This document shows, in pieces, positions 1-5,710 of a stretch of 5,710 nt of DNA; position 1 is the stretch's first letter; each line of letters opens with the position of its first letter. Position numbers and translations under genes: made by a program. The DNA comes from a virus (lineage: Duplodnaviria; Heunggongvirae; Uroviricota; Caudoviricetes), in IMG/VR virus record IMGVR_UViG_2703719354_000010, one strand, 5' to 3'. Under the pieces are notes generated by a model that saw nothing but the letters and a program-made list of their open reading frames with translations, searched no databases and was not told the origin of the DNA.

Positions 1-82
1 AGTCATATTCGCCCTGACTTTCCAGAACCATACGGACTGCCCGTTGACGGACTTCAGGGGAAAAACGAGTATTTTTAGTCAT
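1..82 (-). CDS. IS3-family transposase OrfA (HTH protein), N-terminal 27 codons only; 3' part lies outside the window
   Basis: The reverse complement of 1..82 translates as MTKNTRFSPEVRQRAVRMVLESQGEYD, which matches the N-terminus of IS629/IS1203-type OrfA as I recall it. ATG is the complement of 80..82, with AGAGG a few nt upstream. The ORF track misses it because the ORF has no stop inside the window. Confidence 0.8.
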   Translation of the reverse strand, partial: MTKNTRFSPEVRQRAVRMVLESQGEYD

Positions 83-136
83 CCTGTTTACCTCTTTCTC
101 AGGAAGTTTAGTCTCCAGGATTCCCGGGGCGGTTCA
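1..136 (-). mobile_element. Terminal ~136 bp of an IS3-family insertion sequence (IS629/IS1203-like end); the element continues beyond the left edge of the window
   Basis: On the - strand the outer end reads TGAACCGCCCCGGGAATCCTGGAGACTAAACTTCC... (reverse complement of 121..136 and inward), a TG-initiated terminal inverted repeat as in IS3-family elements, followed by AGAGG and the orfA ATG. Lambda ninB homology begins immediately at 137. Assignment to IS629 specifically is from memory. Confidence 0.8.
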
Positions 137-476
137 AACCATTCAGGAACGCAACCGCAGCTTAGACCAAAACAGGAAGCTATGGGCCTGCTTAGGTGAC
201 GTCTCTCGTCAGGTTGAATGGCATGGTCGCTGGCTGGATGCAGAAAGCTGGAAGTGTGTGTTTACCGCAGCATTAAAGCAGCAGGATGTTGTTCCTAACC
301 TTGCCGGGAATGGCTTTGTGGTAATAGGCCAGTCAACCAGCAGGATGCGTGTAAGCGAATTTGCGGAGCTATTAGAGCTTATACAGGCATTCGGTACAGA
401 GCGTGGCGTTAAGTGGTCAGACGAAGCGCGACTGGCTCTCGAATGGAAAGCGCGATGGGGAGACAGGGCGGCATGA
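137..476 (+). pseudogene. ninB: ninB (lambda Orf146 family recombination protein), 5'-truncated by the IS insertion; C-terminal ~112 codons remain
   Basis: Frame 0 from 138 reads TIQERNRSLDQNRKLWACLGDVSRQVEWHGRWLDAESWKCVFTAALKQQDVVPNLAGNGFVVIGQS...ARWGDRAA, ending at TGA 474..476. This is co-linear with the C-terminal two thirds of lambda NinB. The N-terminal part and start codon are absent, and the frame runs straight into the IS end at 136/137. Confidence 0.8.
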
Positions 477-1435: not shown

Positions 1436-2097
1436 ATATCTACGAAAGAATTGATGGCAGCAAATACCGAAATATTTGGGTAGTTGGCGATCTGCACGGA
1501 TGCTACACGAACCTGATGAAAAAACTGGAGACGATAGGATTCGACACCAAAAAAGACCTGCTTATCTCGGTGGGCGATTTGGTTGATCGCGGTACAGAGA
1601 ACGTAGAATGCCTGGAATTAATCACATTCCCCTGGTTCAGAGCTGTACGTGGAAACCATGAGCAAATGATGATTGATGGCTTATCAGAGCGTGGAAACGT
1701 CAATCACTGGCTGCTTAATGGCGGTGGCTGGTTCTTTAATCTCGATTACGACAAAGAAATTCTGGCTAAAGCTCTTGCCCATAAAGCAGATGAACTTCCG
1801 TTAATCATCGAACTGGTGAGTAAAGGAAAAAAATATGTCATCTGCCACGCCGATTATCCTTGTGATAAATACGAGTTTGGAAAGCCAGTTGATCATCAGC
1901 AGGTAATCTGGAACCGCGAACGAATCAGCAACTCACAAGACGGGATCGTGAAAGAAATCAAAGGCGCGGACACGTTCATCTTTGGTCATACGCCAGCAGT
2001 GAAACCACTCAAATTTGCCAACCAGATGTATATCGATACTGGCGCAGTGTTCTGCGGAAACCTCACATTGATTCAGGTACAGGGAGAAGGCGCATGA
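1432..2097 (+). CDS. ninI: Serine/threonine protein phosphatase (lambda PPase, ORF221 family; calcineurin-like metallophosphoesterase)
   Basis: 221 aa, [32 protein letters not shown]...GDLVDRG...RGNHE..., carrying the canonical metallophosphatase motifs GDxHG, GDxxDRG and GNHE. Near-identical to lambda phosphatase as recalled. ATGA overlaps link it to ninG upstream and Q downstream. Confidence 0.93.
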
Positions 2098-2717
2098 GAC
2101 TCGAAAGCGTAGCTAAATTTCATTCGCCAAAAAGCCCGATGATGAGCGACTCACCACGGGCTACGGCTTCTGACTCTCTTTCTGGTACTGATGTGATGGC
2201 TGCTATGGGGATGGCGCAATCACAAGCCGGATTCGGAATGGCTGCATTCTGCGGTAAGCATGAACTCAGCCAGAACGACAAACAAAAGGCTATCAACTAT
2301 CTGATGCAATTTGCACACAAGGTATCGGGGAAATACCGTGGTGTGGCAAAGCTCGAAGGAAATACTAAGGCAAAGGTACTGCAAGTGCTCGCAACATTCG
2401 CTTATGCGGATTATTGCCGTAGTGCCGCTACGCCGGGCGCAAGATGCAGAGATTGCCACGGTACAGGCCGTGCGGTTGATATAGCCAAAACAGAGCAGTG
2501 GGGGATAGTTGCTGAGAAAGAGTGCGGAAGATGTAAAGGCGTCGGTTATTCAAGAATGCCAGCAAGCGCCGCATATCGCGCTGTGACGATGCTAATCCCA
2601 AACCTTACCCAACCCACCTGGTCACGCACTGTTAAGCCGCTGTATGACGCTCTGGTTGTGCAATGCCACAAGGAAGAGTCAATCGCAGACAACATTTTGA
2701 ATGCGATCACACGTTAG
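2094..2717 (+). CDS. Q: Late gene antiterminator Q (lambda Q type)
   Basis: 207 aa, [83 protein letters not shown]...[12 protein letters not shown]...[10 protein letters not shown]..., same length as lambda Q and near-identical, including the zinc-binding Cys cluster. Followed by a pR'-like promoter. Confidence 0.95.
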
Positions 2718-2759: not shown

Positions 2760-2805
2760 TTGACTTTTTGAATAACTTTGGGGAAACTTGACACCAATAA
2801 TGGGC
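2760..2805 (+). promoter_or_regulatory. pR'-like late promoter with Q-utilisation (qut) region: -35 TTGACT (2760..2765), 17-nt spacer, -10 GAAACT (2783..2788), then a -10-like pause element AATAAT in the initial transcribed region
   Basis: About 45 nt after the Q stop the sequence aTTGACTttttgaataactttgggGAAACTtgacaccaataatggg is co-linear with lambda pR' (TTGACTtattgaataaaattgggTAAATTtgactcaacgatggg) as I recall it. Similarity to lambda ends near 2806. Confidence 0.6.
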
Positions 2806-2929
2806 GTTTTTTACATGTCATTGATGAGTCTCAATAACCTGCCGCCGAGTAGTTTTTATGCTCTGAATTGTATTTGTGTAGTAAACATGCTGACTGCAAT
2901 GTAATAGAGTTTTTTTAGCCTGTAACCTC

Positions 2930-2958
2930 TTGACGGCATTGAATTGCTTTTGTTATGA
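2930..2958 (+). promoter_or_regulatory. Possible sigma70 promoter inside the AT-rich island: TTGACG (2930..2935), 17-nt spacer, TTATGA (2953..2958)
   Basis: Good -35 hexamer, mediocre -10, located just upstream of the membrane-protein ORF. Pattern match only; AT-rich DNA produces many such matches. Confidence 0.25.
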
Positions 2959-3713
2959 GTTGTAAGCCAATGTTATCATCTTGTATTGGGGTGGTTATGA
3001 AGGATGGTGCGCTGCTCAGGAGTTCTTCACTTTTTATTGCCTACATGGGATGCCTTGGATGGGGGAGTGCTTATTTCTATGGATGGGGTACTTCTTTTTA
3101 CTACGGCTTCCCATGGTGGATTGTAGGTGCAGGTGTTGATGATGTTGCCAGAAGTTTATTTTTTGCAGTTATCGTCATTGCTATATTTCTTATCGGTTGG
3201 GGTATTGGTGTTGTATTCTTTTTCGCAGTGAAAAGAAAACATTCTATGCAAGAGCTAAATGTATTTCGCCTTTATTTTGCTGTGGAATTATTGTTTGTGC
3301 CGGCAATTATTGAGTTTTCTATATTGAGACAGAAGATTCAGGTACCTCTTTTGCTACTGTCAGCAGCGATTGCGCTGGCGGTTACAATTTCGATAAGATC
3401 TTATGGGCGATTTTTATCGGTATCATGCTTCTATGATAAGCCATTTATAAAAAAACATTTTTTTGAGATTGTGATGATTGCTTTTGTGGCATATTTCTGG
3501 CTTTTTTCATTTCTGACAGGATATTACAAACCACAGTTTAAGAAAGAATATGAAATGATTAATTATAATGATGGTTGGTATTATGTTCTTGCTCGTTATG
3601 ATAATTGTCTGGTTTTGTCTACTTCTTTCAATGCAGGTAGTAAAAGGTTTGTCATTTATCAATCAGCACAAGATAAGAATCTTCAGGTTGATATTGTAAG
3701 GACCAGAATTTAA
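2955..3713 (+). CDS. Hypothetical polytopic inner-membrane protein (252 codons from the first ATG; alternative starts ATG 2970 and ATG 2997 give 247 or 238 aa), function unknown; cargo (moron) gene
   Basis: A 759-nt ORF in DNA that is AT-rich by eye, where stop codons should be frequent, so it is very unlikely to be open by chance. The product has an aromatic/Gly-rich N-terminus (GWGSAYFYGWGTSFYYGFPWW) and at least four hydrophobic helix-length segments (FFAVIVIAIFLIGWGIGVVFFFAV, LYFAVELLFVPAIIEFSIL, VPLLLLSAAIALAVTISI, FFEIVMIAFVAYFWLFSFLTGYY). A ~60-aa polar C-terminal tail (KPQFKKEYEMINYNDGWYYVLARYDNC...DIVRTRI) follows. No convincing SD for any start. I do not recognise the family. Confidence 0.7.
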   Translation: MSCKPMLSSCIGVVMKDGALLRSSSLFIAYMGCLGWGSAYFYGWGTSFYYGFPWWIVGAGVDDVARSLFFAVIVIAIFLIGWGIGVVFFFAVKRKHSMQELNVFRLYFAVELLFVPAIIEFSILRQKIQVPLLLLSAAIALAVTISIRSYGRFLSVSCFYDKPFIKKHFFEIVMIAFVAYFWLFSFLTGYYKPQFKKEYEMINYNDGWYYVLARYDNCLVLSTSFNAGSKRFVIYQSAQDKNLQVDIVRTRI

Positions 3714-3846
3714 TTGGCTGCATAAATAATATTTTAAGTTGCAAGTTGGCTATTCGTAGGAATAGAACCTTAGGCATGCTGAATGCGTTTTCTGAACATT
3801 GTTTTATAAACTGTGTCTGCTTGCTGTTGTGATCCTGCTTTTAGTG

Positions 3847-3957
3847 ATGGTGATGATGGATTTCACCAGCAGGATAATGTTGGTACTGACTGATGGCGCT
3901 CTGGTCTGCGGCATTGTGGTATTGCTGTGGCCGATGATGAAAGAACAGAATGAATAA
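3847..3957 (+). CDS. Candidate small hydrophobic protein (36 aa from ATG 3847; in-frame GTG 3829 or TTG 3799 would give 42 or 52 aa)
   Basis: Frame 1 reads MVMMDFTSRIMLVLTDGALVCGIVVLLWPMMKEQNE then TAA 3955..3957: one transmembrane-length hydrophobic segment with a charged C-terminus. No SD and below the ORF-track size cut-off. The region is also open on the - strand (3841..4047), so coding status is unresolved. Confidence 0.25.
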   Translation: MVMMDFTSRIMLVLTDGALVCGIVVLLWPMMKEQNE

Positions 3958-4092
3958 TTCTTGACTTTTTTGTTTACTGTTTATTAAAAAATCAACCGCA
4001 TGGTGAATCCTCCTTGGAGGGGCTAAATGATCGAGTTTTAAGGGCACGTAGCGAGTTCTGTTTGATCATTGCAGAACTTAGCGGGAGGCGCC

Positions 4093-4203
4093 ATGCGTAC
4101 ATCACTAATGTTATTTCCTTCTATCATTTTCCTTGTGAGTTCTGGCTGCGCATGGCGCGGCCTTTTTTTTATGACCTGCCACTGGCAGATGGTCATCCTG
4201 TGA
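4093..4203 (+). CDS. Candidate 36-aa peptide with a lipoprotein-like signal sequence; overlaps the terminator hairpin and may be spurious
   Basis: GGGAGG (4083..4088) lies 4 nt upstream of ATG 4093. Product MRTSLMLFPSIIFLVSSGCAWRGLFFMTCHWQMVIL, with a positively charged n-region, hydrophobic core and Cys at position 19. The mature part would be only 17 aa, and the FF run comes from the terminator T-tract. Confidence 0.2.
   Translation: MRTSLMLFPSIIFLVSSGCAWRGLFFMTCHWQMVIL
4144..4170 (+). terminator. Rho-independent terminator: GC-rich hairpin GGCTGCGC-(ATG)-GCGCGGCC followed by T8
   Basis: Read directly: 8-bp stem 4144..4151 / 4155..4162 (seven Watson-Crick pairs and one G-U), 3-nt loop, then tttttttt at 4163..4170. 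The complementary strand has no T-tract after the hairpin, so it is oriented with the late operon. Confidence 0.7.
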
Positions 4204-4256
4204 TTTGATTCCGCTTCCGGCTTTTTAACTCTGTTCCTCTACACGGGAGAAATTCG

Positions 4257-5710
4257 ATGTCGATTAAACATTACGATGTTGTCAGGGCGGCGTCGCCGTC
4301 AGACCTTGCGGAAAAGCTGACACACAAACTGAAAGAGGGCTGGCAGCCATACGGCGGATCGGTTGCCATTACGCCGTACACACTGATGCAGGCGGTGGCT
4401 ATTGAAGGAGAGCCACAGGTCGGCCCTTCATCTGAGCCGGATTGGTACTACGTCATCGTACTGGCCGGGCAGTCCAATGCCATGGCTTACGGTGAAGGGC
4501 TTCCGCTGCCGGATTCATACGATGCTCCGGATCCGCGCATTAAACAGCTGGCGCGCCGCAGTACAGTGACGCCGGGCGGGGCTGCCTGCAGATATAACGA
4601 TATTATTCCGGCTGACCACTGTCTGCATGATGTGCAGGATATGAGTACGCTGAATCATCCGAGGGCTGACCTGAGCAAAGGGCAGTACGGCTGTGTCGGC
4701 CAGGGTTTACATATTGCCAAAAAACTGCTCCCGTATATCCCGAATAACGCGGGGATCCTGCTGGTACCATGCTGTCGTGGTGGTTCGGCATTTACCCAGG
4801 GCGCGGAGGGGACATTCAGCGAGTCCACGGGGGCCAGTCAGGATTCGGCACGCTGGGGGGTGGGCAAGCCGTTATATCAGGATCTGATTTCCCGCACAAA
4901 AGCGGCATTGCAGAAAAATCCCAAAAACGTTCTGCTGGCCGTCTGCTGGATGCAGGGTGAGTTTGACATGAGCGCCGCCACCCACGTACAGCAACCTGCG
5001 CTGTTTACAGCCATGCTGACACAGTTTCGTGCTGACCTCTCCGTGTTTAACGCGCAGTACCATGGTGGCAGTGCTGCAGATGTGCCGTGGGTTTGTGGTG
5101 ACACGACGTATTACTGGAAAAATACATACGCTACCCAGTACGACACCGTGTACGGCGGGGATAAAAACAGGGGGAGGGAGGGGGNNNNNNNNNNNCATGG
5201 TGGCAGTGCTGTAAATGTGCCGTGGATTTGTGGTGACACGACGTATTACTGGAAAAATACATACGCTACCCAGTACGACACCGTGTACGGCGGGTATAAA
5301 AACAGGGAGAGTGAGGGCGTTTATTTTGTGCCCTTCATGACAGACGGTAACGGCGTCAATACCGCCACTAACGCGCCGGCAGAAGATCCGGATATTCCGG
5401 CATCAGGATATTACGGTGCGGCATCGAGAACGAATGGAAACCAGGTATCATCAAACCGCCCGACACATTTCAGTTCATGGGCGCGCAGGAGCATTATTCC
5501 GGATCGTCTGGCAACCGCTATTCTGAACGCAGCCGGGCGCACCTCCGCCTTCATCAGTGGTAAGGCACCGGAAATCAAACCCTCGCCCGGCGGCAACACG
5601 CCATCGGGTCCGTCTGCAGATACGTCCGTTCGCACAATCTCCCTGCTGCCGGCAGCCGGAGAGGCTGCTGCGCAGGGCTGGAGCATTAAGGATGGCGGAA
5701 TTCAGTTGTC
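4257..5710 (+). CDS. nanS: Prophage-encoded sialate (9-O-acetyl-Neu5Ac) O-acetylesterase, NanS-p / YjhS family (SASA/SGNH-type esterase); 3'-partial, interrupted by a scaffold gap
   Basis: GGGAGA (4245..4250) lies 6 nt upstream of ATG 4257. Frame 0 is open from 4257 to the window end: MSIKHYDVVRAASPSDLAEKLTHKLKEGWQPYGGSVAITPYTLMQAVAIEGEPQ...YYVIVLAGQSNAMAYGEG...LLVPCCRGGSAF...CWMQGEFD... It has the N-terminal domain typical of these prophage esterases and a GQSN catalytic-serine motif. Missing from the ORF track because of the N run and no in-window stop. Confidence 0.88.
   Translation, partial: MSIKHYDVVRAASPSDLAEKLTHKLKEGWQPYGGSVAITPYTLMQAVAIEGEPQVGPSSEPDWYYVIVLAGQSNAMAYGEGLPLPDSYDAPDPRIKQLARRSTVTPGGAACRYNDIIPADHCLHDVQDMSTLNHPRADLSKGQYGCVGQGLHIAKKLLPYIPNNAGILLVPCCRGGSAFTQGAEGTFSESTGASQDSARWGVGKPLYQDLISRTKAALQKNPKNVLLAVCWMQGEFDMSAATHVQQPALFTAMLTQFRADLSVFNAQYHGGSAADVPWVCGDTTYYWKNTYATQYDTVYGGDKNRGREGXXXXHGGSAVNVPWICGDTTYYWKNTYATQYDTVYGGYKNRESEGVYFVPFMTDGNGVNTATNAPAEDPDIPASGYYGAASRTNGNQVSSNRPTHFSSWARRSIIPDRLATAILNAAGRTSAFISGKAPEIKPSPGGNTPSGPSADTSVRTISLLPAAGEAAAQGWSIKDGGIQL
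5061..5319. repeat. Direct duplication of ~124 bp flanking the N gap (copy 1 5061..5184, copy 2 5196..~5319); probable unmerged overlapping contig ends
   Basis: Both copies begin catggtggcagtgctg...gtgccgtgg...tgtggtgacacgacgtattactggaaaaatacatacgctacccagtacgacaccgtgtacggcggg. They differ at a few positions; copy 1 ends in a G-rich run (cagggggagggagggg) directly before the Ns, where copy 2 reads cagggagagtgagggcg. Confidence 0.85.
5185..5195. other. Scaffold/assembly gap (11 N)
   Basis: A run of n characters inside the nanS-p reading frame. Confidence 0.99.

Follow-up and report, generated by a model that had tools for sequence, protein, structure and literature searches.

A TfpB/STM1630-family inner-membrane protein gene in the toxin slot of a lambdoid prophage, a possible lysogenic-conversion factor

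Organization of the locus

The window is the whole 5,710-nucleotide stretch of viral DNA analyzed here (IMG/VR record IMGVR_UViG_2703719354_000010, Caudoviricetes). It derives from a lambdoid prophage and carries, between the late antiterminator gene and an esterase gene, an AT-rich gene that is referred to below as the cargo gene. The relevant features, all on the plus strand, are the following.

2094..2717, + strand: lambda-type late antiterminator Q (Pfam PF03589 Antiterm, E 1e-57), the upstream neighbor that defines the slot
2760..2788, + strand: PR'-like late promoter with an overlapping qut-like site (TTGACT-17-GAAACT), from alignment to phage mEp234
2931..2979, + strand: candidate promoter belonging to the cargo gene itself (CTTGAC block at 2930-2935; TTGTTA-18-TGtTATCAT at 2950-2979)
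2955..2996, + strand: in-frame upstream extension of 14 codons, including the start at 2970 of a 247-aa RefSeq version
2988..2994, + strand: Shine-Dalgarno-like GGGGTGG just ahead of the common ATG, where most homologous loci have GAGGG in the alignment
2997..3713, + strand: TfpB/STM1630-family inner-membrane protein gene, the cargo gene (PF27470, phrog_1521, hhalign, AlphaFold2 model, dN/dS, RefSeq)
3799..3957, + strand: co-directional downstream gene for a DUF3927 small membrane protein, "TciB-like" (PF13064, E 3e-14; phrog_1470)
4014..4208, + strand: small ORF of 64 aa from a TTG, candidate coding, a "putative membrane protein" in phage 434
4144..4171, + strand: intrinsic-terminator-like hairpin and T-run (8-bp stem, 7 GC pairs, T8), annotated as a terminator in 434
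4257..5710, + strand: NanS-p-like SASA-family carbohydrate esterase gene, open from ATG 4257, matching the SASA esterase of 434/2B8

The putative PR'/qut site can be aligned, column for column, with the PR'/qut annotated in mEp234; two positions of the -10 element are different (GAAACT vs. TAAATT). In mEp234, one 51-aa ORF is all that separates PR' from the holin gene, and the slot is nearly empty in related phages. The cargo gene is a foreign insert, with PR'/qut (after Q) on one side and the lysis cassette on the other; its windowed GC of 0.31-0.41 compares with about 0.50 in the nin/Q region and the flanks. Insertion between genes that adjoin each other in related phages, combined with deviant GC, is a trait of morons, and the description of the gene as single-gene polytopic prophage cargo, offered in an earlier note on this DNA, is borne out.

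No terminator and no significant RNA structure were detected between PR' and the ORF (2786-2960), and the first terminator found downstream of PR' is the hairpin at 4144..4171, placed after the block of three ORFs. The DUF3927 gene accompanies the cargo gene in 434, 2B8, O26, and O157 and is absent from non-prophage contexts. Scans against PHROG, NCBIfam, and PADLOC gave no family match for the 64-aa ORF. The esterase gene contains an N gap and runs past the end of the window. The evidence for a promoter of the cargo gene's own at about 2930-2979 is suggestive only: in a consensus scan, the number of promoter matches was not above shuffle expectation, whereas both the CTTGAC and the TTTGTTATG block recur, conserved, in the ETEC-plasmid and ExPEC-island copies, in which the coding DNA is just 64-66% identical.

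Reality and extent of the cargo gene

Counted from its first ATG, the ORF at 2955-3713 (plus strand) encodes 252 aa. The probability that 252 codons stay open by chance at the local composition (A.25, C.14, G.23, T.39) is about 2e-8, and the longest open run spans 256 codons against a maximum of 174 in 2000 shuffles of positions 2901-3800, in agreement with the earlier judgment that the ORF is too long to be fortuitous. Overlapping ORFs in the other frames all have 52 aa or fewer. Because dN/dS is 0.06-0.20 in comparisons with seven homologues, close alleles included, 2997-3713 codes for protein and evolves under purifying selection, as a real and selectively maintained gene.

Translation likely starts at ATG 2997, yielding 238 aa, rather than at 2955 as originally proposed, because most full-length homologues have 236-238 aa and because their start codons and Shine-Dalgarno sequences (GAGGG/TGGGG) line up on 2997. 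The newest RefSeq annotation of the identical gene is the 717-nt version, with its start as at 2997. The upstream extension is probably not translated; no Shine-Dalgarno-like sequence precedes 2955 or 2970, and the extension overlaps the candidate promoter.

A catalogued family

The cargo protein had been described as unrecognised and unassignable to a family. By sequence, it is a member of a catalogued family, known as PF27470 (TfpB) in Pfam, PHROG 1521, and the STM1630 family in RefSeq, and an identical gene had already been annotated. A precomputed match to PF27470.1 covers the 100%-identical cluster P0001 and all 103 homologues, phrog_1521 matches the protein with E 2e-154, and in RefSeq the identical gene goes by the name "STM1630 family protein". 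Phage 434 encodes the identical protein (CPT_434_68), and a prophage of O157:H7 carries identical DNA. A homologue with 46% identity (P0075; 94% of the 252-aa query, full 238 aa, E 1e-70) was recognized as Salmonella STM1630 by its sseJ neighborhood, its 717-bp length, and a primer sequence. More distantly, Moraxella bovis TfpB aligns with the cargo protein over 227 of 238 columns at 26% identity (hhalign, 99.7%, E 2.9e-25), and its locus was also found by tblastn (E 1e-19). To our knowledge, no member of the family, Moraxella TfpB included, has a known molecular function.

The family is restricted to Enterobacterales, Pasteurellaceae, Neisseriaceae, and Moraxella. Among 50,697 phage records, tblastn matched 434 and 2B8 only. 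Many family copies are truncated or frameshifted (P0092, P0094, and P0103; fragment PHROGs 14371, 17164, and 3985). A scan of the cargo protein against NCBIfam gave no match, one against PADLOC-DB gave none at E <= 0.1, and a profile search of PDB sequences gave none. With a Pfam set that lacked PF27470, the only hmmscan result was DUF4501 at E 0.23, which was taken as noise. Profile searches matched no enzyme family and no housekeeping transporter family, the kind of match on which the earlier reading would have foundered.

Several names invite confusion. The annotations of 434 and 2B8 suggested a "Tci" lead (tellurite, colicin, cell division), which was rejected: the Tci names are by-similarity labels from phage P1, only the neighboring DUF3927 product is "TciB-like", and tblastn over the 50,697 phage records found no similarity of the cargo gene to the P1 tci products TciA and TciC. 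The "TfpB" of recent literature is a PilB-like ATPase of Acinetobacter, unrelated to PF27470, and "TFPb" denotes type IVb pili (PMC4628258).

Predicted architecture

Kyte-Doolittle analysis identifies four strong hydrophobic segments and an aromatic, Gly-rich first segment, as the earlier note had observed in reporting a Trp/Tyr/Gly-rich N-terminus and at least four hydrophobic helices. With a diverse alignment as input, AlphaFold2 gave a model (pLDDT 79.8, pTM 0.73) that was used in place of one from a shallow alignment (pLDDT 58.8). Numbered from M15, it has five long helices (10-36, 47-79, 84-111, 116-137, and 155-181) and a C-terminal five-stranded β-domain of about 50-55 residues (184-235). 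From this model, we infer five transmembrane helices with a cytoplasmic N-terminus, and the β-domain probably faces the periplasm. The invariant aromatic- and glycine-rich TM1 sequence GWGSAYFYGWG and the YYGFPWW loop would then lie at the periplasmic face.

Alignments and the model point to an architecture common to the family, with about 240 aa, the conserved aromatic/Gly TM1 and loop, five transmembrane helices, and the C-terminal β-domain. Residues A15, A25, Y26, G37, G175, and Y195 are invariant or nearly so. No family-wide conserved polar residue that would hint at catalysis was found in the alignments, so the absence of a recognisable enzymatic motif, reported earlier, holds at the level of the family.

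Genomic settings of the family

The gene is present in 1197 of 5426 complete E. coli genomes, about a fifth, including O157:H7 and O26 STEC, and it is intact and near-identical in hundreds of STEC genomes. Its phage carriers belong to two unrelated temperate types, lambdoid and P2-like. The closest arrangements are those of 434 and of a CP-933K-type prophage of O157:H7, which share the downstream DUF3927 gene and the terminator with the window but have a Q82-type antiterminator and LpxR upstream, in contrast to the lambda-type Q and PR' of the window. The cargo block has therefore moved between late-control modules. In the other contexts examined (prophages, virulence plasmids, and islands), the family gene is always solitary, with no conserved partner.

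The slot between Q and the lysis genes is the one used by stx in Stx phages and by LT-II prophages. There, stx1/stx2 and LT-II likewise follow Q/PR' and precede nanS-p and the holin gene, but they encode secreted toxins, whereas the cargo of the window is a membrane protein. Relatives adjoin sseJ, eltAB/STb, lpxR, and iroBC/iss and also occur on Shigella pINV, that is, beside key virulence genes in Salmonella, Shigella, ETEC, ExPEC-type islands, and C. rodentium. The family gene flanks eltAB on ETEC toxin plasmids, and STM1630 lies next to sseJ/steB, sseJ encoding a lipid acyltransferase effector. Such locations are guilt by association, as AT-rich cargo gathers in virulence islands whatever its job. 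Non-phage chromosomal copies are conserved in Salmonella, Citrobacter, Avibacterium, and Neisseria, and across the Salmonella subspecies and C. rodentium the gene occupies a fixed chromosomal site.

STM1630 resembles the cargo protein in length and architecture, and its gene is an AT-rich, horizontally acquired singleton beside virulence cargo; it is, however, chromosomal rather than prophage-borne, and its upstream region cannot be aligned with that of the window. Published data on STM1630 (SL1344_1560) show that the gene is bound by H-NS, has its own mapped promoter, and is induced under SPI-2 conditions and in macrophages. Its mutants were attenuated in calves and chickens in a transposon screen, and its deletion led to higher net intramacrophage replication in one strain. 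All Salmonella ST313 carry an inactivated promoter, and S. Typhi lacks the gene. A role in motility has been dropped: hypermotility was first reported, and a clean deletion had no phenotype. Taken together, the attenuation in calves and chickens and the raised replication in macrophages suggest that STM1630 restrains growth or alters the interaction with the host. All phenotypes of the family come from this Salmonella homologue, which is 46% identical, and the effects are modest; its regulation, too, was measured in Salmonella only.

Proposed role in the lysogen

The reading that best accounts for these observations, to which we assign a probability of about one half, is that the 238-aa protein is a non-enzymatic envelope factor of the inner membrane that serves lysogenic conversion or host adaptation and is expressed from its own promoter in the lysogen. 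By analogy with STM1630, the lysogen probably expresses the gene once H-NS silencing is lifted, and the Q-modified polymerase would also transcribe it late in lytic growth. The protein would alter the envelope physiology of the bacterium within its animal host. As it bears no catalytic signature, it most likely binds or packs against another envelope component, and a role as enzyme or transporter is less likely. Since the gene works without a partner in Enterobacterales, Pasteurellaceae, Neisseriaceae, and Moraxella, the target of the protein would have to be a conserved core component of the envelope. A role in life within the animal host is likelier than one in phage defence because the relatives reside in virulence islands and plasmids of Salmonella, Shigella, and toxigenic E. 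coli. Of the possibilities raised at the outset, conversion is the best supported, by the family contexts and the STM1630 data, whereas exclusion or abortive infection is unsupported.

Alternative explanations

Under the exclusion explanation, the leading idea of the earlier note, the protein would shield the lysogen by blocking the entry of phage DNA or by collapsing the membrane. RexB, SieA/SieB, Imm, and HK97 gp15 are precedents; RexB/SieB, P22 SieA, and HK97 gp15 are small accessory membrane proteins expressed by prophages. The presence of a small polytopic membrane protein as lone cargo in both lambdoid and P2-like phages is the pattern that an exclusion gene would also give. In the PADLOC scan, however, the cargo protein showed no similarity to RexB/SieB, SieA, or HK97 gp15, which are encoded in immunity/early or tail-end regions, unlike the cargo gene with its late-operon position. 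No defence genes lie beside the family gene in any context examined, stable non-phage chromosomal copies exist in Salmonella, C. rodentium, Avibacterium, and Neisseria, and Shigella pINV and ETEC toxin plasmids retain the gene. STM1630, moreover, is regulated with SPI-2 and affects the outcome of infection, and we know of no phage-resistance phenotype for any TfpB-family member. Exclusion is thus improbable; were it the function after all, the gene would represent a new single-gene defence.

A role as an accessory of type IV pili or type II secretion, in which the protein would bind pilin-like subunits in the inner membrane and tune filament assembly, carries a rather small probability. The founding member, TfpB of Moraxella bovis and M. 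lacunata, shares with the cargo protein the TM1/loop motif AY.YGWG...Y.G.PWW and a C-terminal YY.L β-domain, and it is encoded within an invertible type IV pilin cassette next to piv; in M. bovis, the tfpB ORF lies between two pilin gene segments and is co-directional with one of them. The four groups to which the family is confined include many bacteria with type IV pili, and one ETEC copy adjoins eltAB, the genes for a toxin that leaves the cell by type II secretion. In size and plan, the cargo protein also recalls the FimB-like TfpX/TfpY/TfpZ proteins, which are non-enzymatic inner-membrane proteins of about 235-245 aa with an N-terminal transmembrane region and a C-terminal periplasmic β-containing domain (PMC11841053). 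Compared by description, however, TfpY-like proteins have three transmembrane helices and a far larger, mixed β/α/β periplasmic domain, against five helices and an all-β domain of about 55 residues in the cargo protein, and they are always encoded downstream of a pilin gene, which the cargo gene is not (PMC11841053). The window contains no pilin gene, and within 5 kb of the family gene a pilin N-terminal motif occurs at the Moraxella loci only. STM1630 is retained by S. Typhimurium, which is not known to us to make type IV pili.

Of similarly low probability is a partnership in envelope-lipid or LPS remodelling, in which the protein would act with lipid A- or lipid-modifying cargo such as LpxR to adjust outer-membrane lipids in the host. 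LpxR is a neighbor in three differently arranged contexts: lpxR is divergent and adjacent in C. rodentium, convergent and adjacent in another prophage type (in one case alongside a PmrD-like gene), and about 1.4 kb upstream of the cargo gene in 434 and O157. In Salmonella, SseJ holds the same position, and lpxR of EHEC has been placed within the Ler/LEE modulon. Nevertheless, lpxR is absent from most contexts, among them the window, the O26 prophage, and the ETEC, Shigella, ExPEC, Pasteurellaceae, and Neisseria loci; the cargo protein lacks an enzymatic motif, and the adjacency may reflect only common cargo slots.

Two explanations are very improbable. A late lytic function driven by PR'/Q, which would modify the envelope of the dying cell to time lysis or to block re-adsorption of progeny to debris, fits a first gene after PR'/qut with no terminator detected between, directly upstream of the lysis cassette, but homologues function in non-phage settings, the gene is missing from related lambdoid phages, and a decayed prophage whose lysis genes are gone still carries it together with iss. 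A selfish or decaying gene, currently functionless in the prophage, would fit the many broken family copies, the inactivated promoter in ST313, and the absence from S. Typhi, but not the low dN/dS, even among close alleles, or the intact copy in hundreds of STEC genomes.

Broader implications

As it stands, the gene encodes an ordinary hypothetical membrane protein from a catalogued family. The link between the prophage gene, STM1630, and Moraxella TfpB nonetheless offers a tractable entry, with lambda/434 genetics, Salmonella mutants, and a structural model at hand. If the family modulates host interaction, as the lysogenic-conversion reading implies, the cargo gene would be a further example of toxin-slot cargo that shapes pathogen behavior.

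A bolder generalization, which we consider doubtful, is that TfpB/STM1630 proteins form a hitherto unrecognised class of single-gene inner-membrane modulators, spread among mucosal pathogens by phages, plasmids, and islands, that act on one conserved envelope machine and restrain growth or host visibility. If so, the prophage copy would be a true lysogenic-conversion virulence modulator in the stx slot. Examples of such a machine would be the handling of pilin-like subunits or the remodelling of lipid A and the outer membrane. The carriers of the class would comprise EHEC/EPEC prophages, 434, Shigella pINV, ETEC plasmids, Salmonella, Pasteurellaceae, Neisseria, and Moraxella.

Gene model and family assignment

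The open reading frame at 2955-3713 (+) is present as the earlier note described it, and its openness lies beyond chance. At the local base composition, 252 open codons would arise with a probability of about 2e-8, and the longest open run in 2000 shuffles was 174 codons. GC drops from about 0.50 in the flanks to 0.31-0.41 in the gene, and comparison with seven homologues, at 48-97% amino-acid identity, gives dN/dS values of 0.06-0.20. Taken together, these data identify a real gene under purifying selection. It contains three in-frame ATGs, at 2955, 2970 and 2997. Because full-length homologues mostly span 236-238 aa, the start codons of nine aligned upstream regions fall on 2997 just after a GAGGG (TGGGG in the window), and the current RefSeq annotation of the identical O157:H7 gene is the 717-nt form, the start is placed at 2997. 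The earlier note was thus correct about the frame and its description, but not about the start codon (2955) or the claim that the product was unrecognised and not assignable to a family.

The target has no match in NCBIfam, PADLOC or a Pfam set without PF27470; it matches phrog_1521 of PHROGs (function unknown) with an E value of 2e-154. The 103 relatives found by protein search are almost all labelled Enterobacterales, and the precomputed Pfam domain PF27470 (named TfpB in the context tables) is present on every one. Recent RefSeq records call the gene an STM1630 family protein. A profile search run exhaustively over 1.84 billion cluster representatives yielded only 72 relatives, with Pasteurellaceae (Avibacterium, Gallibacterium, Actinobacillus, Pasteurella) and Neisseria as new groups; scanning genomes extended the family to Aggregatibacter, Glaesserella, Conchiformibius and four Moraxella species. 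In the invertible pilin region of M. bovis, the match is a 261-aa frame with a pilin gene segment on either side, and that of M. lacunata lies between piv and the pilin gene; the Moraxella pilin-region match is the classical tfpB. A profile-to-sequence comparison aligns the target family with M. bovis TfpB across 227 columns, at a probability of 99.7%. P0075, a Salmonella relative with 46% identity and a divergent neighbour of sseJ, is STM1630, since its length and neighbours are the same and a published deletion primer encodes its residues. Membership of the target in the TfpB/STM1630 family is secure.

The sequence, family and name of the target are already public, with annotated copies of the identical gene in phage 434 and many E. 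coli genomes. CPT_434_68 of phage 434 matches the target protein at 100% identity, and a phage 2B8 product does so at 98%; O157:H7 strains share the coding DNA at 100% identity, and DNA searches found the cargo block at 99.9% identity in many STEC genomes, including O26:H11 11368. No family member is known to have an assigned function. The finding itself is real and modestly interesting. Truncated or frameshifted members are frequent (several E. coli copies; the relatives P0092, P0094 and P0103; the fragment PHROGs 14371, 17164 and 3985), and M. lacunata tfpB, at 195 aa (L036 4974-5561), is a further example. Aggregatibacter actinomycetemcomitans carries two members at different loci (L026/L028 and L027/L037). 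The target protein is also encoded, at 100% identity, on a contig of 3 kb that bears the label 'MAG: Veillonella sp.' (L017); mis-binning of E. coli prophage DNA is the likeliest explanation.

Position and expression signals

The window covers the region of late regulation in a lambdoid prophage.

Features of the window
36-476: NinB gene, N-terminally truncated (Pfam)
3' of NinB: NinF, then NinG genes (Pfam)
Between NinG and Q: lambda-type Ser/Thr phosphatase gene (Pfam)
3' of the phosphatase gene: antiterminator Q gene (Pfam)
2760-2788: PR'/qut-like site, aligning with the annotated PR'/qut of phage mEp234
2955-3713 (+): target, between the PR'/qut-like site and the DUF3927 gene
3799-3957: DUF3927 gene, 3' of the target
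3' of the DUF3927 gene: small open reading frame, then a strong terminator-like hairpin at 4144-4171
Last in the window: NanS-p-like SASA esterase gene, continuing past the edge

NinB lacks about its first 30 codons: 5' of '...VQTIQERNRSL', the frame reads as unrelated sequence with a stop codon. In the esterase frame, 11 N (5185-5195) separate 122-nt direct repeats (5061-5182 and 5196-5317, 95% identical), a pattern that suggests either an artefact of scaffolding or assembly or a genuine duplication in frame. The DUF3927 label 'TciB-like inhibition of cell division or resistance to colicin' derives by similarity from phage P1 tci names; a search for its experimental basis found none.

The target is the first gene 3' of the PR'-like promoter, the -10 element of which is weakened (GAAACT versus the lambda-type TAAATT). 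Between this site and the target there is neither a terminator pattern nor significant RNA structure (z = 0.06), and the first strong terminator is the hairpin after the small open reading frame; Q-modified transcription must therefore cross the target late in infection. A terminator-like hairpin about 50 nt 3' of PR' in mEp234 is degenerate in the window (2760-2960), so that the cargo genes fall between PR' and the first strong terminator, and constitutive transcription from PR' might cover them in lysogens. A σ70-like element, TTGTTA-18-TGtTATCAT, lies at 2950-2979 just 5' of the target, in a scan whose consensus hits do not exceed shuffle expectation. An upstream CTTGAC block and a TTTGTTATG block are kept in the ETEC-plasmid and ExPEC-island copies, in which the upstream 75 nt are 64% conserved, equal to coding DNA. 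This conservation suggests that a putative promoter travels together with the gene.

Predicted structure and topology

AlphaFold2 gave a poor model on a shallow alignment (pLDDT 58.8) and a better one on a 44-sequence family-wide alignment (pLDDT 79.8, pTM 0.73), in which five long helices are followed by a C-terminal domain of five β-strands, about 50-55 residues in size. The K+R counts per loop (2/1/4/2/5) favour an N-in, C-out topology. In this orientation the β-domain would be periplasmic, and the invariant TM1 and loop, rich in aromatic residues and glycine (GWGSAYFYGWG...YYGFPWW), would sit on the periplasmic side of the membrane.

Genomic contexts

In all contexts examined, the family gene is solitary, with no conserved partner.

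Contexts of family genes
Lambdoid prophages with lambda-type Q (window, 2B8, O26): directly 3' of Q
Lambdoid prophages with Q82-type Q (434, O157): directly 3' of Q
Third lambdoid type: Q-methylase-[gene]-LpxR-(PmrD-like)-NanS-p-DUF1378-DUF826-holin
ETEC plasmids: divergent from eltAB, STb nearby, IS elements on the flanks
Shigella pINV (106 Shigella plasmids): on pWR501, between virA and the spa genes
C. rodentium chromosome: adjoining LpxR
Copy adjoining iroB/iroC: bor/iss gene about 2 kb away
Rep3 plasmid: one copy
Distant branch: end of P2-like prophages, adjoining umuDC
Neisseria arctica and Avibacterium: housekeeping neighbourhoods

In Stx phages, stx occupies the Q-to-lysis slot used by the family gene in the third lambdoid type. 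The ETEC-plasmid member (L004-L007, 3987-6714; 59% identical) sits upstream of eltAB, the operon for heat-labile enterotoxin, at a distance of about 870 bp and is about 3 kb from STb, with the IS elements flanking the whole set. Salmonella copies, those of subspecies arizonae and diarizonae included, have the same downstream genes as the C. rodentium copy, which suggests a common site. The setting of the iroB/iroC-adjoining copy looks like a decayed prophage. The distant branch (L049-L051; Klebsiella aerogenes, Enterobacter bugandensis) has a fixed SRAP-[gene]-umuC-umuD/S24 order, adjoined in L051 by P2-like tail-fibre and baseplate genes.

Functional interpretation

The best-supported reading, with a probability of about 0.5, is that the target is a lysogenic-conversion or host-adaptation inner-membrane protein. 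The gene is foreign cargo, probably H-NS-silenced; the protein would need neither a partner nor catalytic activity, and would act on a conserved component of the envelope, with effects appearing in the host environment. Superinfection exclusion or abortive infection, proposed in the earlier note, has no positive evidence and is unlikely. Slightly less probable is pilin handling: the Moraxella context and a general plan like that of TfpY-like proteins speak for it, but the target lacks two features defining those proteins, and a type IV pilin motif occurs within 5 kb of a family gene at Moraxella loci only. A link to lipid A remodelling, to which the recurrence of LpxR as a neighbour points, is comparably doubtful. 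A purely late-lytic role and functionless cargo are both very improbable.

Published data on the Salmonella homologue

STM1630 is described as a gene of unknown function that is flanked by steB and sseJ and missing from S. Typhi (PMC6785131, S1 Text). Its transposon mutants are attenuated in calves and chickens (Morgan 2004, via PMC6785131 S1 Text), and an H-NS binding site explains the dearth of transposon insertions (PMC6785131, S1 Text). The -10 box is destroyed in all ST313 isolates, and macrophage fold-replication is increased in a 4/74 deletion mutant (PMC6785131, S1 Text). A motility role is not retained: one screen gave a hypermotile phenotype for STM1630, but a clean deletion did not reproduce this. 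The gene is expressed in SPI-2-inducing medium and inside macrophages (PMC6785131, S1 Text), and Yoon et al. place it in a cluster of genes co-regulated with SPI-2.
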